64,000 nt of DNA from Escherichia coli (lineage in GTDB: Bacteria; Pseudomonadota; Gammaproteobacteria; Enterobacterales; Enterobacteriaceae), in assembly GCF_003018235.1 (NCBI RefSeq), contig NZ_CP027437.1. One strand, given 5' to 3'. Positions 3,254 through 10,349 of this stretch are shown piece after piece. The translations under genes were made by a program, and so were the position numbers. The notes under the pieces were generated by a model that was not told the origin of the DNA, did no database searches, and was given only the letters and a program-made list of their open reading frames with translations. Every line of letters starts with the position of its first letter. Position 1 is the stretch's first letter.

Positions 3254-3523
3254 ATGAGAGGACTGGAGCTTGAACGAATGACGCCGGAAAAAATGCATGC
3301 AATTGGTATGGAGTTCATCAGGAGATCTGAGGCCATGACGCAGGCGGGGATGACAAAAGACGCTGTCAGAAAAAATCTGCTTCCGGCGATACAGCGCCTG
3401 AACCGTGCAAAACATGAGCTTCAGATGGTGGTTGATCAGATGATCGATAAGGCAGCAGAGCTGGAAAAGTATAGCAGTGCGCTTGAAAAAATCATTCAGG
3501 ATATTGTGGGCACTGAGCAGTAA
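3254..3523 (+). CDS. hypothetical helical prophage protein (89 aa)
   Basis: ATG preceded by GAGGTGG RBS; first gene of a tightly spaced three-gene cassette. Confidence 0.4.
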   Translation: MRGLELERMTPEKMHAIGMEFIRRSEAMTQAGMTKDAVRKNLLPAIQRLNRAKHELQMVVDQMIDKAAELEKYSSALEKIIQDIVGTEQ

Positions 3524-3533
3524 GAGGTGGGGT

Positions 3534-4613
3534 ATGCAGGCGATCCTGACGGTATTCCCGCAGCGTAATGCCGGGATAACACTGATGAAAACAGGTAATC
3601 TGACAGCGCGGTTCAGGGACGGGCAGAGAATAATGATAAGGGATGTTCCGTCTGTGATGGCTGGGATGCCATCAGGAGAAATTCCGTCATCAGGACAGAG
3701 GCTGGCGGAAGAGGAAGGACTGACGGCTTTCTTTGCTGACGGAAGGGTAATAAAGCGTGCTGGTGGCAGTGATGCCATGGCGCGTTGGGTGAGCAGGATT
3801 GCAGGCTGCCAGTGTGAGAATGGTGATCACGTGGAGAACATGACAACAGCGCGGACAATGCAGGGAGAGGCGCTTCGGTTATGCCATGCCTGTGATAATC
3901 ATCATTATATGAAAGGATATCGGGCGCTGGCAGATGTGGCAGCCAGAAATCGTGCAGAATGGCTGATGGATTATATCAGGATGAGTCTGGGGCTGGGGGA
4001 AGATCATCAGGTGACCATTCCTGAGTTGTTTTGCTGGGCAGTGCTGAATGATGTGGCAGATGCTGTTCCGGTTATGATCGTAAGGCGTATCAGACAATTG
4101 CCGGAAGAGGAAAAGCTGAGCGGCACGATGAAAGAAGCAGATATTAATCCCTGGCAGACATCAGCAGGCACAGTGGTGAAGAAACTGGCAGATAATGCGA
4201 AGAGCGTTAATGTGTGCAATGTGCGGGTCAGACATGCAGTACGCCAGGAAGAACACAAAGAAATGGAAAAACCGGTGCTGAAACTTGTTGCAGACAGTGA
4301 TCCGGCTGCGGGCTATATGAGGAAGCCCAGAATGCAGCGGCTGTCTCTGCCGGGTTATACCTCGTGGGTGAAGCGTCAGCGATGCTGTGGATGCGGGAAA
4401 CCTGCAGATGATCCGCATCACATCACCGGGCACGGTTTTGGTGGTGCAGGGATAAAAGCCAGTGATTTGTTTGTGATCCCGCTGTGTCGGCAATGTCATC
4501 AGGAATTACACAATGACAGCAAGGCATGGGAGGAGAAAAACGGCAGTCAGTTGCTGTGGGTGATAAGGACGCTGGACAGGGCAGCGGGCATTGGCGCTTT
4601 AGTTGGGGGGTAA
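3534..4613 (+). CDS. Cys/His-rich prophage protein, resembles YdfU/DUF968 family (from memory)
   Basis: ATG with AGAGGTGGGG RBS; C-terminal CCGCGKPADDPHHITGHGFGG...IPLCRQCHQELHN zinc-binding-like cluster and internal CQCENGDH...CHACDNHHY cluster; size about 359 aa. Confidence 0.4.
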   Translation: MQAILTVFPQRNAGITLMKTGNLTARFRDGQRIMIRDVPSVMAGMPSGEIPSSGQRLAEEEGLTAFFADGRVIKRAGGSDAMARWVSRIAGCQCENGDHVENMTTARTMQGEALRLCHACDNHHYMKGYRALADVAARNRAEWLMDYIRMSLGLGEDHQVTIPELFCWAVLNDVADAVPVMIVRRIRQLPEEEKLSGTMKEADINPWQTSAGTVVKKLADNAKSVNVCNVRVRHAVRQEEHKEMEKPVLKLVADSDPAAGYMRKPRMQRLSLPGYTSWVKRQRCCGCGKPADDPHHITGHGFGGAGIKASDLFVIPLCRQCHQELHNDSKAWEEKNGSQLLWVIRTLDRAAGIGALVGG

Positions 4614-4614
4614 C

Positions 4615-5319
4615 ATGACACCGCAACAGATGGTATGGGCGAGAGAGCAGGTTATTTTTGCACTGAATCCACCGGATAAACGTCAGAAGGGGCAACTGGA
4701 GGCATTTGGTGATTTTGCCAGGTCAGACACCAGGCGTTACGGGAGGCAGAGAAACAGGACACTGAACATTGATGGCCGGTGGTATTGTCAGGATGGTGAT
4801 CCGGTACATGCTGCGGCAACAGCCTGTTATGCAATACAACCGGATATGATCACCAGGGAAGCGTTCAGAACGGCACAACTGAGGAGGAGGATTTATTGTC
4901 TGGAGGATTATCATCGGGCCTGGGTGTTATTCAGTTACAGCTTGCAGAAAAAACGAATACACCATCTTCTGGTCAGTGAGTACATCTGGATGAGGATGTT
5001 CGAGCGGTTGCAGGGGAAACGGGTTACGGACAGGATGACAGGAAATCTGATTGAAATAGCGAGGATGGCTGCATGGAATGCTGCAGTGACAGCCGGTGGG
5101 ATTGTTGCAGGTAAGGTTCTGATTGCTCCTTCATGTGCGGCGCAGATTGCAGGTGTAAAACCAAACACATGGAGTCAGCATTACAAGGCTCACTGGTGTT
5201 TTATGCATGAAGTATGCGATGAACTGGATCATGAGGCGCTGGTGACCATTACAGGAATAAAAAATCACCAAAAAAACGGCGAAAAATATAAATTTGCTAA
5301 AGTGAATATTTTAAGGTAG
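4615..5319 (+). CDS. hypothetical protein, candidate Q-type late antiterminator (by position and size only)
   Basis: Start 1 nt after upstream stop; 234 aa; followed immediately by promoter-like hexamers and a strong intrinsic terminator, as for Q/PR-prime/tR-prime. Confidence 0.3.
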   Translation: MTPQQMVWAREQVIFALNPPDKRQKGQLEAFGDFARSDTRRYGRQRNRTLNIDGRWYCQDGDPVHAAATACYAIQPDMITREAFRTAQLRRRIYCLEDYHRAWVLFSYSLQKKRIHHLLVSEYIWMRMFERLQGKRVTDRMTGNLIEIARMAAWNAAVTAGGIVAGKVLIAPSCAAQIAGVKPNTWSQHYKAHWCFMHEVCDELDHEALVTITGIKNHQKNGEKYKFAKVNILR

Positions 5320-5322
5320 ATT
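5294..5322 (+). promoter_or_regulatory. candidate sigma70 promoter (possible PR-prime analogue): TTGCTA, 17-nt spacer, TAGATT
   Basis: Hexamers read directly at 5294-5299 and 5317-5322, at the 3-prime end of the candidate Q gene. Confidence 0.25.
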
Positions 5323-5363
5323 TGAGGCAAATTTGATAGTCTGCCGTATTTGTAAGCAGAGCA

Positions 5364-5390
5364 TAAACCCGCATATTGCGGGTTTTTTTA
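5364..5390 (+). terminator. intrinsic terminator (AACCCGCA-TATT-TGCGGGTT plus T7)
   Basis: Perfect GC-rich hairpin followed by TTTTTTT. Confidence 0.65.
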
Positions 5391-5513
5391 TGCCCGAAAT
5401 TTTCCCTCAGCGCAATAAATACGCTGGTGGTTGTGAGTACCGGTCTTTCAGCTTGCTGGCTTTTTCGACAAGAGTTATTGGTATGCCACGTTAACCGGAC
5501 AGGGGGAAAAGAC

Positions 5514-5711
5514 ATGCTGAAACAGCAGGATATGACAGAAACCGCCAGGGTGGTGTTTAATGAATTAAGCATTACCGAACCGGCGACCGTCGGGGAAATA
5601 GCGCAGAATACCTGCCTTTCACGTGAACGCTGCCAGTTAATACTGACTCAGCTTGTTATGGCGGGTCTGGCTGACTATCAGTTCGGTTGTTACAGACGCC
5701 TTCAGCAATGA
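5514..5711 (+). CDS. small winged-helix-like DNA-binding protein (65 aa)
   Basis: ATG with AGGGGGAAAAG RBS; helix-turn-helix-like segment VGEIAQNTCLSRERCQLILTQLVMAGL. Confidence 0.45.
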   Translation: MLKQQDMTETARVVFNELSITEPATVGEIAQNTCLSRERCQLILTQLVMAGLADYQFGCYRRLQQ

Positions 5712-5862
5712 AGGCATTCTTTTATTGTGAAGATGGGCGACTGGTTAGGTGTTACAGCACCCAACCAGTCATTCGCTCATGCTTGAAGGTCACAAGCGAA
5801 CCCAGGCCCACCGCTTTTGCACAAAAGCCCGGAGAGCCTACCGGAGATGAGTTTGTTGATCT

Positions 5863-6930
5863 ATGACGCATGTTGTAAAAATATCAGAAAGTGAACTGGT
5901 CAATGCTGACTGCCTGGAATTTATACACACGTTGCCAGATGACAGTATTGACCTGATCGTTACCGATCCACCGTACTTTAAAGTGAAACCCAATGGCTGG
6001 GATAACCAGTGGAAGGGTGATGAAGATTACCTGAAGTGGCTGGATCAGTGTCTTGCGCAGTTCTGGCGGGTGCTGAAACCTGCCGGAAGTCTTTACCTGT
6101 TCTGTGGCCATCGCCTGGCATCTGACATCGAAATCATGATGCGTGAACGCTTTAATGTGCTGAACCATATTATCTGGGCGAAGCCGTCCGGACGCTGGAA
6201 CGGATGCAACAAGGAAAGCCTGAGGGCGTATTTCCCGGCCACAGAGCGCATTCTGTTCGCGGAACACTATCTGGAGCCGTATCGCCCGAAAGATGATGGT
6301 TATGAGGCGAAGGGCAGGGCACTGAAACAGCATGTGATGGCACCGCTGATTTCTTACTTTCGTGATGCGCGTGCCGCCCTTGGGATAACGGCAAAACAGA
6401 TTGCTGATGTCACAGGAAAGAAAAACATGGTGTCGCACTGGTTCAGTGCCAGTCAGTGGCAGCTGCCGAACGAAAGCGATTATCTGAAATTACAGGCGCT
6501 GTTTGCCCGGGTGGCAGAAGAGAAGCATCAGCGCGGAGAACTGGAAAAGCCACACCACCAGCTGGTGGTAACGTATACCTCACTGAACCGGCAGTATGCG
6601 GAGTTGCTGAGTGAATACAAAAATCTGCGCCGGTATTTTGGCGTGACGGCGCGGGTCCCGTACACCGATGTGTGGACGCACAAGCCGGTCCAGTTTTACC
6701 CGGGTAAACACCCCTGTGAAAAACCGGCGGAGATGCTGCGGCAGATAATTTGTGCGAGCAGCCGTCCTGGTGACATGGTGGCGGATTTCTTTATGGGGTC
6801 GGGCTCAACCATAAAAGCCGCTATGGCGCTGGGGCGTCGTGCAATTGGTGTTGAACTGGAAGAGGAACGTTTTGCGCAGACCGTGAAAGAGATTAGTCAT
6901 ATCCTGACAGGCTCAATTGATGACGGATAA
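5863..6930 (+). CDS. orphan DNA amino-methyltransferase (N6-adenine/N4-cytosine, beta-class motif order)
   Basis: TDPPYF (motif IV) near N-terminus and FFMGSGST (motif I) near C-terminus; no adjacent restriction endonuclease. Confidence 0.8.
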   Translation: MTHVVKISESELVNADCLEFIHTLPDDSIDLIVTDPPYFKVKPNGWDNQWKGDEDYLKWLDQCLAQFWRVLKPAGSLYLFCGHRLASDIEIMMRERFNVLNHIIWAKPSGRWNGCNKESLRAYFPATERILFAEHYLEPYRPKDDGYEAKGRALKQHVMAPLISYFRDARAALGITAKQIADVTGKKNMVSHWFSASQWQLPNESDYLKLQALFARVAEEKHQRGELEKPHHQLVVTYTSLNRQYAELLSEYKNLRRYFGVTARVPYTDVWTHKPVQFYPGKHPCEKPAEMLRQIICASSRPGDMVADFFMGSGSTIKAAMALGRRAIGVELEEERFAQTVKEISHILTGSIDDG

Positions 6931-7380
6931 GGATGGATAAAGACATGGTCAGTTCAGGATGCGAAGCAAGTAAACAGATAAGGCTATAAAAAAAACTGAC
7001 AGTAGAAAAATAGCTTTTTCCCAGGTATTCATGAACACAATCTCTTAAAAGCGCCCGCTGATACCAGCGGGCAATACATACTGGCATTGATGTTAAGTTT
7101 ACAGGTTTCATTTATCGTATCGTGCGACACGACGTTGTTATGTTAATAAGTGTGATTTTTGATGTGAAATGTTTGTTGCGTGTTTTTTGATGGGTTTCTC
7201 ATTTTTCAGGCATCATCTCGTCACTGATGTGCAGCACAGCGATGAGGTGCTACTACTTCCACGGAGCGGATTTTGTCTTTTTTGTGGGTGGTAAAAATCT
7301 CCTTATAGCAGGATGTGATAATTATTTATCAGTATAATCTTATGAGATTGACGCGATTTCTCCGGATTTGTTAGAAGATC

Positions 7381-7457: not shown

Positions 7458-7534
7458 GCGCCGTTAGCTCAGCTGGACAGAGCAATTGCCTTCTAAGCAA
7501 TCGGTCACTGGTTCGAATCCAGTATGGCGCACCA
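7458..7534 (+). tRNA. tRNA-Arg (anticodon TCT, reads AGA)
   Basis: Cloverleaf folded by hand: 7-bp acceptor stem, perfect 5-bp anticodon stem ATTGC/GCAAT, loop CTTCTAA, T-loop TTCGAAT, encoded CCA. Confidence 0.85.
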
Positions 7535-7535
7535 T

Positions 7536-7610
7536 GCGGTCATCGTATAATGGCTATTACCTCGGCCTTCCAGGCTGATGATGCGGGTTCGATTCCAGCT
7601 GGCCGCTCCA
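7536..7610 (+). tRNA. tRNA-Gly (anticodon TCC), glyT-like with one T-stem mismatch
   Basis: 75 nt, near-identical to E. coli glyT recalled from memory; anticodon loop CTTCCAG; acceptor stem with one G-U; T-stem GCGGG/CCAGC has a G-A mismatch. Confidence 0.7.
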
Positions 7611-7768: not shown

Positions 7769-7939
7769 TATTTTTAGTATTTAGCCAGAGTGGCCCAAAC
7801 AGAAAATAAAGTTACTGTGAAACAGGGGGGCCTAATAAAAATAATCACCACTAAATTCGGGGCTTTAAAAATGCTAAGAACATCACATTTCATTATGCCG
7901 GGTACTGGAGAATAACATGATGTTTTGTTAAAAATGATT

Positions 7940-7979
7940 TTGCATGGTGAATCCCCCTGTGCGGCGGGGCATAATGACA
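7940..7979 (+). repeat. about 40-bp conserved motif, copy 2
   Basis: See copy 1; a partial inverted copy (GGTCATTGCAG...CACCATGCAG) lies at about 8021-8064. Confidence 0.5.
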
Positions 7980-8321
7980 GATGTTTGGTTGCGTATTGTA
8001 TAGGCAAGTTGCGGATTCTGTCTGGTCATTGCAGAATTCACCGGGAGGCACCCGGCACCATGCAGATAATTGTTTTGTGGATGATAATACCAGCCCCTCT
8101 CCGGAGGGGCTTTCTTATGGGCGAAAAAAAGCCCGGGGAGCCGGGCAATAGCATGAGATATACGTTTTTATAGACGTACAGATTTTAATCAGAATTTATG
8201 GGGCTGCGCAACTGCGTGGCCTTTTTTGTTTTGTGGGCTAAGGTTTTCCCCTTTGATTCGCCATGTGGCTGAACCTGTAGCCCGCCACTGTTCAGACGCA
8301 ATCCCGGCAAGGGGAGGAATA

Positions 8322-10349
8322 ATGGCATTTAAACACTACGATCTGGTCTCTGCCAGCAGCGGTGATGAACTGCAAAAGAAACTGACAGAAAAAATAAATG
8401 AAGGGTGGCAGCCATACGGTTCGCCGCTTGTTTCGTATGACGATAACGGGATGAAAATTATTCAGGCCATTGCAGCAGAGGGTGATGTCAGGATCCCGGT
8501 TGAAACGCCTGATGATGGTGGTGATTCACCGGTCACAATGACCTCCGGTGCACCTGATTATTATTATGTTGTTGTGCTTGCCGGACAGTCCAACGGCATG
8601 GCCTACGGTGAGGGGCTTCCGTTACCGGACTCTTATGACCGCCCGGACCCGCGCATTAAACAGCTGGCACGCCGCAGTACAGTGACGCCGGGTGGGGACG
8701 CCTGTGCATACAATGATGTGATTCCGGCTGACCATTGTCTGCATGATGTACAGGATATGAGCGGTGTTAATCATCCGAAAGCGGACCTGAATAAGGGGCA
8801 GTATGGCTGTGTCAGTCAGGGGCTGCATATTGCCAAAAAACTGCTGTCGTATATCCCGCAGAATGCAGGGATACTTCTGGTGCCCTGCTGCCGTGGTGGT
8901 TCTGCATTCACCACCGGGGCTGACGGCACATTCAGTGAGGTCACCGGCGCATCCGCTGACGCTGCACGCTGGGGTGCCGGTAAACCCCTGTATCAGGACA
9001 TGGTCAGCCGGACAAAAGCGGCGCTGGCCAAGAACCCGAAAAACAGGCTGCTGGCGGTGGTATGGATGCAGGGCGAGGCAGACCTTGCGTCAGGCAGTCA
9101 GCAGCATAACGGGTTATTCACGGCCATGGTTCAGCAGTTCCGGACTGACCTGTCCTCACTTGCTGCGCAGTGCGTGAGTGGCAATGCTGCCACGGTGCCG
9201 TGGATTTGTGGTGATACCACGTATTACTGGAAGGCCACTTATGGCACACAGTATGAAGCCATTTATGGAGCCTATAAGAATCTGTCCGCACAGAATATTT
9301 TCTTTGTACCGTTCCTGACAGATGAAAACGGCGCAAACACGCCAACGAACCAGCCAGCGGAAGACCCGGATATTGTGGCTGTGGGGTATTACGGTGCGGC
9401 ATCACGAACACAGGCGAACTGGACGACAGCGCAACGTGACAGCCATTTCAGCACCTGGGCGCGTCGCGGCATCATTTCTGACCGCCTTGCGTCAGCTATT
9501 CTGGTGCACGCGGGACGTACGTCAGGTTTCATTACCGGTGAAGTTTCTTCTCCGGACACTGCATCCGGTGACGGTGGTTCGTCCACTGATGCGGGTACGG
9601 ATGCGGGGACCGGCACTTCCGGAACAGGAAGTGATGACGCTACCGGAACGACACCAGCCACCGCTGCCATTATTCTGAGTGCAGACGGAGGGGATGTTTC
9701 GGCACAGGGCTGGACGGTGGAAGGCACCACGGTGACCACCACGGCAAACACGGTGACTTCATCGGGTGAGGCGCTGGCGCAGAATGTGCTGAGTGTTCCG
9801 AAACAGAGCGGGGCAGCATGGAAGCTTGTTCATACCACCACAGATGAGCCAGCGGAACTGCTGAACAATGGCGGTGAGTTCCTGTGTCGTTTCCGTATCA
9901 CGGATACTGCCATTGCTGAGGGGCGTTATGCCTTTGGTCTTTACTGGCTTCCGGACGCACAGAAGATACCAGCCGGTGCGACATTCAATAAAACAGGAAG
10001 CGGGATGTCCCCGTCCATGCTCAACTTCTATGTCCAGACGGATGGCAGCAACATAAACCTGTTATCACACTGCAGTACGAAGAGTGCAGGGAATCTGAAG
10101 ATTGGCTCATTCGGTGCATTTAACAATGAATGGCATACCTTCCGTCTTCGCTACCATGGTGGCAATACGGCAAGAGCAACGGTGACGCTGGACAGTCAGG
10201 TGGTGGGAGATATAACGCTGTTATGTGCGCCGTCAGCGGCCAGTGCCGGTGACACTCTGTCGATGATAAGTATCACATCGGGTGATACATACAGTATTGA
10301 AGTGGAAAGCCTGAGTGTGACGGTGAACGGGGCTGCGGCAGCGGCGTGA
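8322..10349 (+). CDS. prophage sialate O-acetylesterase-like protein (NanS-p-like) with long C-terminal Thr/Gly-rich domain
   Basis: GGGGAGGAATA RBS then ATG; SASA-type catalytic motif VLAGQSNGMAYGEG; N-terminal region resembling DUF1737; position equivalent to the esterase gene downstream of stx in Stx phages. Confidence 0.6.
   Translation: MAFKHYDLVSASSGDELQKKLTEKINEGWQPYGSPLVSYDDNGMKIIQAIAAEGDVRIPVETPDDGGDSPVTMTSGAPDYYYVVVLAGQSNGMAYGEGLPLPDSYDRPDPRIKQLARRSTVTPGGDACAYNDVIPADHCLHDVQDMSGVNHPKADLNKGQYGCVSQGLHIAKKLLSYIPQNAGILLVPCCRGGSAFTTGADGTFSEVTGASADAARWGAGKPLYQDMVSRTKAALAKNPKNRLLAVVWMQGEADLASGSQQHNGLFTAMVQQFRTDLSSLAAQCVSGNAATVPWICGDTTYYWKATYGTQYEAIYGAYKNLSAQNIFFVPFLTDENGANTPTNQPAEDPDIVAVGYYGAASRTQANWTTAQRDSHFSTWARRGIISDRLASAILVHAGRTSGFITGEVSSPDTASGDGGSSTDAGTDAGTGTSGTGSDDATGTTPATAAIILSADGGDVSAQGWTVEGTTVTTTANTVTSSGEALAQNVLSVPKQSGAAWKLVHTTTDEPAELLNNGGEFLCRFRITDTAIAEGRYAFGLYWLPDAQKIPAGATFNKTGSGMSPSMLNFYVQTDGSNINLLSHCSTKSAGNLKIGSFGAFNNEWHTFRLRYHGGNTARATVTLDSQVVGDITLLCAPSAASAGDTLSMISITSGDTYSIEVESLSVTVNGAAAAA

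Follow-up and report, generated by a model that had tools for sequence, protein, structure and literature searches.

The 64,000-nucleotide stretch of Escherichia coli DNA analysed here (the window) carries, in a lambdoid prophage of the chromosome, a two-gene cassette that sits 3′ of the gene for the Q antiterminator and ahead of the lysis genes. We consider it likely that this cassette encodes an M.EcoGII-like methyltransferase that is made late and in dependence on Q, stays silent in the lysogen and methylates the DNA of the phage progeny irrespective of sequence. By sequence comparison, the methyltransferase is a prophage copy of an already characterised M.EcoGII-type enzyme and not a novel orphan. 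The kind of enzyme was already known; the conserved folded leader that precedes its gene and the small winged-helix protein that accompanies it are uncharacterised. The anatomy of the locus, its homology and conservation, the predicted fold and terminators and the covariation of the leader were all computed in this work, and the features on which the argument draws are the following:

4603..5319, + strand: gene for the Q antiterminator, 238 aa (Pfam PF06323 Phage_antiter_Q, E 1.4e-27)
5365..5392, + strand: intrinsic terminator, tR′-like, whose 9-bp stem AAACCCGCATATTGCGGGTTT precedes a T run
5393..5513, + strand: leader ahead of the small ORF, conserved in a block at ~5449-5495 and carrying a G-rich ribosome-binding site (alignment, promoter scans)
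5514..5711, + strand: small ORF (ATG 5514, TGA 5711) for a 65-aa winged-helix protein of PHROG 331, function unknown (ORF and AlphaFold2 model)
5698..5725, + strand: second terminator-like hairpin, which has a T-rich tail and lies across the stop codon of the small ORF (terminator scan)
5730..5862, + strand: leader of the methyltransferase (~130 nt), conserved, with no Shine-Dalgarno and a predicted fold (alignments, folding)
5733-5780, + strand: predicted helix P1 (leader alignments)
5788-5797 with 5851-5861, + strand: predicted helix P2 (leader alignments)
5813-5828, + strand: predicted helix P3, a 16-bp palindrome (leader alignments)
5863..6930, + strand: gene (ATG 5863, TAA 6930) for a 355-aa beta-class N6-adenine methyltransferase of the M.EcoGII clade (PF01555; PHROG 67 ‘DNA methyltransferase’)
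7458..7610, + strand: tRNA-Arg(tct) and tRNA-Gly(tcc), the downstream boundary of the cassette

The original prediction had proposed an orphan DNA methyltransferase with DPPY ahead of FxGxG, preceded by a 65-aa wHTH protein, and the coordinates of both genes proved exact. The methyltransferase matches the N6_N4_Mtase profile PF01555 over residues 29-341 (profile search, E 9.5e-44, 150.4 bits, cut-off 26.7). Read from the translation, DPPY (motif IV, residues 35-38, nt 5965-5976) does precede motif I: it is followed by the target-recognition region (~6340-6573) and then by FMGSG, the FxGxG of motif I (residues 310-314, nt 6790-6804), which is the motif order of the beta class. Among the solved relatives closest in sequence are M.RsrI and CcrM, both of them adenine methyltransferases of the beta class. 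Over its full length, the protein is identical to M.EcoGII at 302 of 350 positions (86%) with 2 gaps, the reference being supplement file 5 of PMC11551740, a PDF read by machine, with a few reading errors and with the gaps at likely such errors. This identity covers the charged linker and the recognition region, where 73 of the 78 residues from 160 to 237 are the same by our own count. The homologue P0133 was considered as the exact M.EcoGII protein and discarded; it is only 90% identical, and the sequence given in that supplement therefore served for the comparison. The enzyme of phage 1720a-02, described as ‘very similar’ to M.EcoGII (PMC5778455), is 88% identical to the window enzyme and 93% to M.EcoGII.

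The non-specificity, the silence in the lysogen and the harm that we attribute to the window enzyme are taken from the literature on its homologues. M.EcoGII methylates adenine whatever the sequence context; it is not expressed in its own lysogen, its gene cloned alone yields active enzyme, and clones that express it constitutively grow slowly and are unstable (PMC5778455). Non-specificity, lysogen silence and harm on expression are reported for the clade (PMC5778455, PMC12707154), whose reconstructed ancestors Anc291, Anc289 and Anc284 (SUPREM) also methylate in assays (PMC11551740), and lysogen methylomes show no methylation signal from homologues (PMC5778455; PMC6602927). The window enzyme is probably non-specific too, given its 86% identity to M.EcoGII. 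A different view would make it a site-specific orphan, active in the lysogen and altering the expression of host genes, as orphans such as Dam and CcrM do (PMC5778455), and the relatives of the enzyme are indeed named ‘site-specific DNA-methyltransferase’ by NCBI. However, these names are automatic, the identity to a proven non-specific enzyme extends to the recognition region, the homologues are silent in those methylomes, and the gene stands behind two terminators with no promoter-like site; a lysogen-active, site-specific enzyme is thus very improbable.

Of the roles that had been suggested for a phage orphan, protection against restriction agrees with the one proposed in the literature for the M.EcoGII family, whereas an epigenetic effect on gene expression in the lysogen is unlikely for a lysogen-silent clade. 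The orphan reading itself stands as far as a DNA amino-methyltransferase without a nuclease partner is concerned, and gives way on novelty, since the enzyme falls at ~86% identity within an already known clade. Membership of that clade also means that there is probably no motif to find, so the search for one in lysogen versus cured strain that had been advised would probably come out blank and is the wrong test for an M.EcoGII-type enzyme. RNA, too, is methylated by M.EcoGII in vitro, which makes moot the proviso that the protein might turn out to be an RNA methyltransferase.

Placement in the late region, another element of the original prediction, is borne out by the annotation. The gene for Q, the homologue of which is named ‘bacteriophage antitermination protein Q’ by PGAP, ends at 5319, and further 3′ of the cassette lie tRNAs, a nanS-p-like esterase, a holin and a lysozyme; the tRNA pair at 7458-7610 occupies the spot where Stx phages have tRNAs and stx. 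No restriction endonuclease gene is found among the neighbours of the cassette (DUF968, Q, tRNAs, esterase and lysis genes), nor in the annotation of a 97%-identical E. coli relative over ~6 kb on either side, so that the absence of a restriction partner holds. The DUF968 gene, two genes upstream, was weighed as a hidden nuclease partner and rejected, its HNH-like match scoring 23.8 bits against a cut-off of 26.6; we take this gene to be a frequent neighbour of Q in prophages devoid of such a methyltransferase. The Q-adjacent position is common in relatives: among the nearest upstream ORFs of 34 related loci, 23 of 63 are Q antiterminators, from three Pfam families, and DNA similarity to Stx-type phages with different Q genes begins at window position 5357-5378 or later. 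Matches of at least 95% to the prophage occur in only two complete E. coli genomes, and DNA related to the cassette stretch is present in around 40% of them, in up to 8 places in some. In many Shiga-toxin phages, the related stretch lies directly upstream of the stx genes.

The region between Q and the methyltransferase has the anatomy of a silenced segment. Four of its features were missing from the original prediction: the 151-nt gap between the two genes, the conserved non-coding leader that fills it, the two terminator-like hairpins and a 52-aa ORF. A promoter scan of the window detected nothing resembling a sigma-70 promoter on the + strand from Q to the methyltransferase, and terminator-like sites were called at 5365-5385 and 5698-5715. 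The hairpin at 5365-5392 is also present in aligned relatives, less clearly in Pantoea, and a hairpin of varying sequence equivalent to that at 5698-5725 occurs in most of the 33 diverse loci that were folded, including those devoid of the small ORF. This second hairpin is followed by a strong T run in phage 1720a-02 and by a weak T tract in many relatives, where it may therefore terminate inefficiently. The same combination of terminators with no promoter-like site on the + strand is found in phage 1720a-02 and in Kosakonia. With no promoter-like site of its own and a tR′-like terminator upstream, the cassette reads as a Q-dependent late gene. The corresponding PR′ promoter was not detected by the scan; a candidate chosen by eye (TTGCTA at 5294, 17 nt, TAGATT ending at 5322) matches at only 8 of 12 positions. 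Weak Rfam matches to Trp_leader and isrK at 5328-5391 were rejected, being sub-threshold and coincident with the terminator, and the leader of the small ORF gave no match to a known RNA family.

The leader of the methyltransferase is the more unusual part of the cassette. Its identity among relatives is higher than that of the coding sequence (81% versus 74%), in 93% of 383 divergent pairs, and its RNAfold z-score is -4.9. In the alignments, 92.5% of the cells in the predicted helices are paired, against 28-46% in slid controls, and two-sided pair changes number 11, against 4.3 in shuffles, a covariation signal that draws on few independent lineages and on helices derived from the same sequences tested. 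Compensatory changes in P1 occur in Gilliamella and in the related locus L135. The 3′ strand of P2, TGATC, stops 2 nt short of the ATG of the methyltransferase, and in Gilliamella it extends over the ATG itself. In a more distant clade, the leader is replaced by an ordinary AAGGAG site. No Rfam 15 family matched 5712-5862 at E up to 1, and nothing credible was found for the Buttiauxella copy at E up to 5. Among the E. coli copies, the leader in the window is the most diverged. Moreover, the leader is retained in 7 of the 8 species-level loci without the small ORF, and must therefore function without the small protein, unless this is supplied by another prophage. It may be speculated that the folded leader, deprived of a Shine-Dalgarno, represents, alone or together with the small protein, a dedicated cis-regulatory RNA of a hitherto undescribed kind, which would keep the methyltransferase off in lysogens and dose it in the lytic cycle, as a counterpart of com-mom built from unrelated parts in prophages of Enterobacterales and Orbales; we hold this to be rather unlikely.

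Other readings of the leader region were considered and discarded. A leader peptide, MGGWWVL, with tandem Trp codons, has a stop that ranges from 7 to more than 40 codons between loci, and in Gilliamella and L135 its sequence shifts while the base pairing stays. Its ‘tandem Trp’ turns out to be the Chi octamer. Chi as the cause of the conservation was rejected in turn: the window has 17 copies of Chi where 2.8 are expected, an enrichment that extends throughout, and Chi has been lost from P1 in the window, Gilliamella and L135, yet the helix is retained. Finally, an ORF of 52 aa at 5708-5866 on the + strand, with ATGA overlaps with both neighbours, looked like a translationally coupled third gene. 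It was judged not to be a gene, as 1-nt indels break its frame in relatives and it has no start codon in 1720a-02, and searches of Pfam and PHROG with it gave no match.

The small protein is, in contrast to that ORF, real, as its median dN/dS of 0.036 indicates purifying selection. AlphaFold2 with an alignment of 21 sequences predicts a winged helix (helix, helix, helix, beta-hairpin) with a pLDDT of 92.5, in accordance with the wHTH assignment; this model replaced a poor one obtained from the single sequence (pLDDT 63.5). The protein is labelled ‘TrmB family transcriptional regulator’ by PGAP, but its Pfam matches are sub-threshold (TrmB, PF01978, 18.0 versus 25.6 bits; DprA_WH, 16.8 versus 22.9) and no NCBIfam model matches it; the TrmB label reflects the generic winged-helix fold. 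Structure searches offer no functional lead either, since the top Foldseek matches are generic winged helices, wHTH domains of the MarR/IclR type, at E ~1e-3. The family is narrow, with 59 representative clusters among 1.84 billion. In the window, the small ORF and the methyltransferase gene are 151 nt apart, and a methyltransferase start ~150 nt 3′ of the small ORF is found in 85 of 90 related loci. A variant of 48% identity holds the same position in an Stx2c phage. The role that had been suggested for this protein, regulator of the methyltransferase, has in its favour a tight linkage (85 of 90 loci) and against it the dispensability of the small ORF, which is absent from 8 of 27 species-level methyltransferase loci and is not needed for activity when the M.EcoGII gene is cloned alone (PMC5778455). 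We regard the protein as an accessory of the cassette that is conserved yet dispensable, with a regulatory role as a working hypothesis.

Three accounts of what the small protein does have to be weighed. The first holds that it has a function of its own, unrelated to the expression of the methyltransferase, and merely shares with it an insertion hot-spot after Q; it could then act on host or phage transcription, or on an effect of heavy m6A, for instance methylation-dependent restriction. Terminator-like hairpins bracket the small ORF as in a self-contained module, three loci have lost the methyltransferase and kept the small ORF, the methyltransferase stands alone in those 8 species-level loci, and other, unrelated genes are inserted at the same post-Q position in relatives. 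However, outside the three deletion derivatives the protein is found only ahead of the methyltransferase and at a constant distance, and its family is very narrow; we consider a separate function somewhat unlikely.

The second account is that of a transcription factor of the controller type, which would control the transcription of the methyltransferase from binding sites on DNA close to the cassette. C-proteins of Type II restriction-modification systems have an Xre-type HTH, bind C-boxes in front of their own gene and time the nuclease. Like them, the window protein is a small HTH-type protein encoded just ahead of a modification gene that points the same way; its winged helix shows the usual recognition-helix pattern, with the invariant segment RCQLILTQL in helix 3, synteny is tight, and both leaders contain conserved blocks, the palindrome at 5813-5828 among them. 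The likeness to controller proteins that had been drawn fails, however, on several points: the protein is a winged helix and not an Xre-type HTH, Pfam HTH_3 does not match it, and there is no nuclease gene whose action would need delay. Inspection of the alignment by eye recognised no C-box in the conserved block upstream of the small ORF. Nor was an operator recognised by eye, and there is no promoter-like site inside the cassette to control. The palindrome is kept in loci without the protein and the indel at its centre varies among relatives, and the net charge of the protein, ~ -1 by direct count, is unusual for a DNA binder. Control of this type is accordingly unlikely.

Com of phage Mu is a zinc-finger protein that binds leader RNA. 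The third account would make the small protein a post-transcriptional regulator like Com, which would bind the leader RNA and open, or close, the helix at the start of the methyltransferase, thereby restricting translation of the harmful enzyme to the proper moment and amount. As in Mu, a small ORF precedes a harmful, lysogen-silent, DNA-modifying enzyme; the methyltransferase has no Shine-Dalgarno, its spacing from the small ORF is constant, and its conserved leader has predicted helices, with a P2 strand near the ATG that covers it in Gilliamella. Against this, the window protein is predicted to be a winged helix and, on direct reading of its 65 residues, lacks CxxC pairs, seven loci without the small ORF keep the leader, and the leader, which is nearly invariant, does not change in step with the three types of the protein (A, B and C). 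Although the parallel between Mom and M.EcoGII has also been drawn in a review (PMC12707154), we judge a Com-like action to be distinctly unlikely.

The resemblance to com-mom is in any case an analogy and not homology. The modification that Mom introduces is not m6A formed by SAM-dependent methyl transfer, and no counterpart of the control of com-mom by Dam/OxyR or by a dedicated transcriptional activator is seen in the window. What the two systems would have in common is a late DNA-modifying enzyme, lysogen-silent and harmful, with broad protection against restriction, preceded by a small ORF and by a leader that holds the translation start in secondary structure. Other nuclease-less methyltransferases are also borne by phages, such as T4 Dam and P1 Dmt (PMC12707154) or those of the M.HaeV type (PMC5778455), and have been proposed to protect against restriction or to act in the life cycle; the target of T4 Dam and of P1 Dmt is GATC and that of M.HaeV, of relaxed specificity, is BA, whereas the M.EcoGII clade has no known sequence requirement. 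The nearest systems are M.EcoGII and M.EcoGI, from prophages of E. coli O104:H4 C227-11, and the homologue in phage 1720a-02, which share with the window enzyme the beta-class fold, the motif order and the prophage location after Q, and M.EcoGII also its helix-turn-helix recognition region and the charged linker. In phage 1720a-02, the small ORF, both terminators and the leader are all present as in the window. In comparison with M.EcoGII, the window enzyme differs in ~14% of residues and has a C-terminus 6 residues longer, and its cassette follows a Q of a different family (PF06323), in a rarer prophage.

From this anatomy and the reported behaviour of homologues we infer a Q-dependent, anti-restriction cassette with a part for the small protein, which may work as follows. 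In the lysogen, the cassette would be silent, lying behind the post-Q terminator at 5365-5392 with no promoter-like site of its own; the hairpin at 5698-5725 would part the small ORF from the methyltransferase, whose start codon, without a Shine-Dalgarno, would lie at the foot of the conserved folded leader. Upon induction, RNA polymerase modified by Q would pass both terminators, and the methyltransferase would be made late, as one of the first late genes. The enzyme would then methylate adenines of the replicating phage DNA irrespective of sequence, and the packaged genomes would be shielded from restriction enzymes of Types I, II and III, many of which are blocked by adenine methylation. 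Our best guess for the small protein is that it would tune the amount of methyltransferase, through the DNA of the cassette or the leader RNA. The anti-restriction role is itself unproven: at 80% m6dA, the efficiency with which plasmid DNA transforms non-restricting E. coli falls 10^4 to 10^5-fold (PMC5778455), so saturating methylation might harm the phage.

This family of enzymes is well known as a source of laboratory reagents (M.EcoGII, SUPREM); our search of the literature on the native expression or regulation of the cassette found nothing specific. The conserved leader and the small winged-helix protein are candidates for the control of a harmful enzyme. If the enzymes do fire at induction, they would bear on why the DNA of these phages, if heavily methylated, keeps its infectivity when equally methylated plasmids fail to transform, and on how Stx phages cross the restriction barriers between strains.

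The window holds a lambdoid prophage in the E. coli chromosome, whose tail genes are adjoined by clpB and rluD; from 42 to 64 kb the sequence shows 99% identity to core genes of E. coli, among them patZ, nadB, pssA and an rRNA operon. The original prediction had described, in the late region of this prophage, a small ORF followed by a methyltransferase with the DPPY motif ahead of FxGxG and with no restriction partner nearby, and the description holds as written. Small ORF, folded leader and methyltransferase gene are here called the cassette, and the features of the region are, in window positions:

3477-4613: DUF968 protein, upstream of the cassette and next to Q
4603-5319: Q antiterminator (PF06323), upstream of the cassette
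5365-5385, then a T run to 5392: intrinsic terminator, tR'-like, 46 nt after Q
5514 (ATG) to 5711 (TGA): small ORF of 65 aa, from the ORF list and the sequence
5698-5715 with a T-rich tail: second terminator-like hairpin, spanning the small ORF stop codon
5730-5862: conserved leader of the methyltransferase, with a predicted fold
5733-5780: P1, the predicted long hairpin of this leader
5863 (ATG) to 6930: methyltransferase ORF of 355 aa, from the ORF list and the sequence
7458-7610: tRNA-Arg(tct) and tRNA-Gly(tcc), downstream of the cassette
8322-10349: nanS-p-type esterase of 675 aa (DUF1737, sialate O-acetylesterase domain SASA, DUF6645)

The methyltransferase matches Pfam N6_N4_Mtase (E 9.5e-44), and its DPPY (residues 35-38) comes before FMGSG (310-314), the order of motifs that marks the beta class; M.RsrI and CcrM are among its best solved relatives by sequence. 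In an E. coli relative of 97% identity, whose annotation was read over some 6 kb to either side of the cassette, no restriction endonuclease-like gene was found; holin and lysozyme come next downstream there. What the original interpretation, only partly right, had missed is that the enzyme belongs to a known and unusual family. It is 86% identical (302/350) to M.EcoGII, a characterised non-specific adenine methyltransferase whose reference copy (supplement of PMC11551740) is machine-read with a few obvious errors, so that the true identity is probably slightly higher. By manual count, 73 of the 78 residues of the recognition region (160-237 according to PMC11551740) are shared. The homologue of phage 1720a-02 is 88% identical to the window enzyme and 93% to M.EcoGII. 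Members of this family methylate adenine in every dinucleotide context, with maxima of 99% of dA in vitro and 86% in vivo; RNA is methylated too, and M.EcoGII methylation blocked 12 of 12 six-base cutters and the six four-base cutters tested (PMC5778455). Because of these identities and of the family properties in the literature, we place the METHYLTRANSFERASE of the window, on sequence grounds, in the M.EcoGII clade. Matches to the DNA from 5300 to 7000 occur in 39 phage records, which are almost all of Stx-converting phages and include 1720a-02, and in 2156 of 5426 complete E. coli genomes, at up to eight places per genome.

M.EcoGII is not expressed in its own lysogen, and clones expressing it constitutively grow slowly and are unstable (PMC5778455); homologues in O111 STEC left no methylation signal in lysogen methylomes (PMC6602927). 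The lysogen methylome proposed as a test by the original prediction would probably show nothing. A scan of the + strand between Q and the methyltransferase found no sigma-70-like site, and phage 1720a-02 has the same two terminators and likewise no promoter-like site. In lambdoid phages PR' is constitutive and its transcript ends at tR' unless Q modifies the polymerase (PMC7547250). From the terminators, the lack of a promoter-like site and this rule, the cassette reads as the first late transcription unit, whose dependence on Q we infer. Similarity to Stx phages with other Q genes starts at the first terminator, and of the 63 ORFs lying nearest upstream in 34 related loci, 23 encode Q proteins of three Pfam families (eight PF06323, eight PF03589 and seven PF06530); the cassette is thus a portable module placed after whichever Q the phage carries. 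A PR' candidate at 5294-5322 (TTGCTA, 17 nt, TAGATT) is weak and was picked by eye. With the terminator at 5365-5392 it would yield a short RNA of about 60 nt, similar in layout to StxS, the PR'-to-tR' transcript of Stx phages (PMC7547250), and with no sequence match to a known sRNA.

The DUF968 protein has a sub-threshold C-terminal HNH-nuclease-like match (23.8 bits vs 26.6), and phage phiP27 has a protein of the GIY-YIG nuclease family between the Q-like gene and the cassette. The tRNA pair occupies the position of the ileZ/argN/argO-type tRNAs that stx follows in Stx phages, and no toxin genes are found there in the window prophage; the usual place of the esterase is downstream of stx. The sRNA STnc100 has a strong Rfam match at 7912-8122 (+; 145.6 bits, gathering score 47), and on the opposite strand, shortly upstream of the esterase gene, 8126-8176 (-) has a sub-threshold match to the prophage anti-sRNAs AsxR (44.5 bits vs 63) and AgvB. 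The Chi octamer GCTGGTGG occurs 17 times in the whole window against 2.8 expected, with 15 of the copies on the + strand; one copy lies at 5423-5430, in the small ORF leader. Relatives carry a copy inside P1 that the window has lost.

The original prediction also overlooked a conserved leader with a predicted fold. The 151 nt separating small ORF and methyltransferase are not a gene: a 52-aa ORF at 5708-5866, with ATGA overlaps at both neighbours, was rejected as single-base indels break its frame in relatives. Conservation is nevertheless high over the 130-150 nt that lead up to the methyltransferase ATG, across Escherichia, Buttiauxella, Mixta, Pantoea and Mangrovibacter. Across 29 loci the leader averages 81% pairwise identity vs 74% for the coding sequence, which it exceeds in 93% of the 383 pairs with coding identity below 80%. 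No Shine-Dalgarno sequence precedes the ATG; an invariant TGATC does, with predicted pairing to GGTCA some 70 nt upstream, and in Gilliamella (methyltransferase 57% identical) the equivalent predicted helix covers the ATG itself. P1 pairing is kept with different sequences in three groups: GGCUGGUGGGUG with CACCC.ACCAGCC in Enterobacteria, GACUGCUACAUG with CAUGUAGCAGUC in Gilliamella, and GAUCGGAGAG with CUCUUCCGAUC in a further locus, L135. In a 37-sequence alignment 92.5% of cells are paired vs 28-46% with slid partners, and both sides have changed in 11 pairs vs 4.3 in shuffles (0 of 500 reach 11), eight of them in the inner part of P1; the compensatory changes come from few independent lineages, and the helices were derived from the same sequences. 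The fold is more stable than shuffled sequence (z -4.9 for the window copy, -3.7 for that of Buttiauxella), and neither copy matches Rfam. In most of the 33 loci folded, the leader has on its 5' side a hairpin whose sequence varies and which a T-rich tract often follows. In place of the folded leader, a more distant methyltransferase clade (L126-L134, IMG/VR; some 59% identity to the Gilliamella enzyme) has a plain terminator, with AAGGAG as its ribosome-binding site. The leader may have a DNA-level role. A Dam site, GATC, lies within TGATC[T/C]ATG at the start codon (5857-5865) and is retained by almost every enterobacterial leader in the alignment.

The small ORF is a real gene, with a median dN/dS of 0.036 (64 distinct homologous sequences; 898 pairs with dS > 0.2), and its product is 95-98% identical across loci whose methyltransferases are 83-97% identical. 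Pfam winged-helix matches are all sub-threshold, no NCBIfam model matches, and the protein falls in PHROGs family 331, of unknown function. A search of 1.84 billion representative proteins returned only 59 clusters, many of them fragments, and the named members come from Enterobacterales, so the family is narrow. Its three sequence types share an N-terminal MLKQQDMT and the helix-3 segment RCQLILTQL; the net charge, counted directly, is about -1. The AlphaFold2 model (21-sequence alignment, pLDDT 92.5) has three helices (9-16, 26-33, 37-49) and a beta-hairpin (53-62). Its Foldseek matches, each with E ~1e-3, are MarR and IclR winged helices and the winged-helix domains by which O-methyltransferases dimerise. 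The proposed likeness to a restriction-modification controller protein fails on its fold class and on the lack of a nuclease; inspection by eye recognised no C-box, and no operator was identified.

Linkage of the two genes is strong, not absolute. The methyltransferase starts about 150 nt 3' of the small ORF in 85 of 90 related loci, and in three it is deleted together with the leader while the small ORF is kept. These variants (L016, L032 and L038, IMG/VR prophage contigs) also retain the small ORF hairpin, joined directly to the tRNA/STnc100/esterase region. In a methyltransferase-seeded scan, one genome per species, the small ORF is present at 19 of 27 loci and absent from eight (two each in Kosakonia, Trabulsiella and Enterobacter, one each in Erwinia and Kluyvera), seven of these keeping the leader. 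Since the cloned M.EcoGII gene by itself also gives active enzyme (PMC5778455), the small protein is an accessory.

On the reading with the best support, the enzyme is made late under Q and marks progeny DNA by non-specific adenine methylation. In the lysogen it would be held off by the two terminators and by a folded leader that is poorly translatable, with the winged-helix protein as a dispensable modulator. In phage Mu the mom gene is preceded by the small com gene, and Com, a zinc finger, makes translation possible by opening a hairpin in the leader. The anatomy of the cassette (small ORF, leader, modification gene) invites the same idea of control, by analogy only, whereas its small protein is a winged helix and its leader persists without the small ORF. 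With 80% m6dA in plasmid DNA, transformation of non-restricting E. coli fell by a factor of 10^4 to 10^5 (PMC5778455), which is awkward for a simple anti-restriction role. This defect may be the reason why expression is built weak, or the real role of the enzyme may be another one. The family is already known, and the window enzyme adds another member; the moderate interest of the cassette lies in two parts that are uncharacterised, namely the winged-helix partner protein and the conserved leader with its predicted fold.
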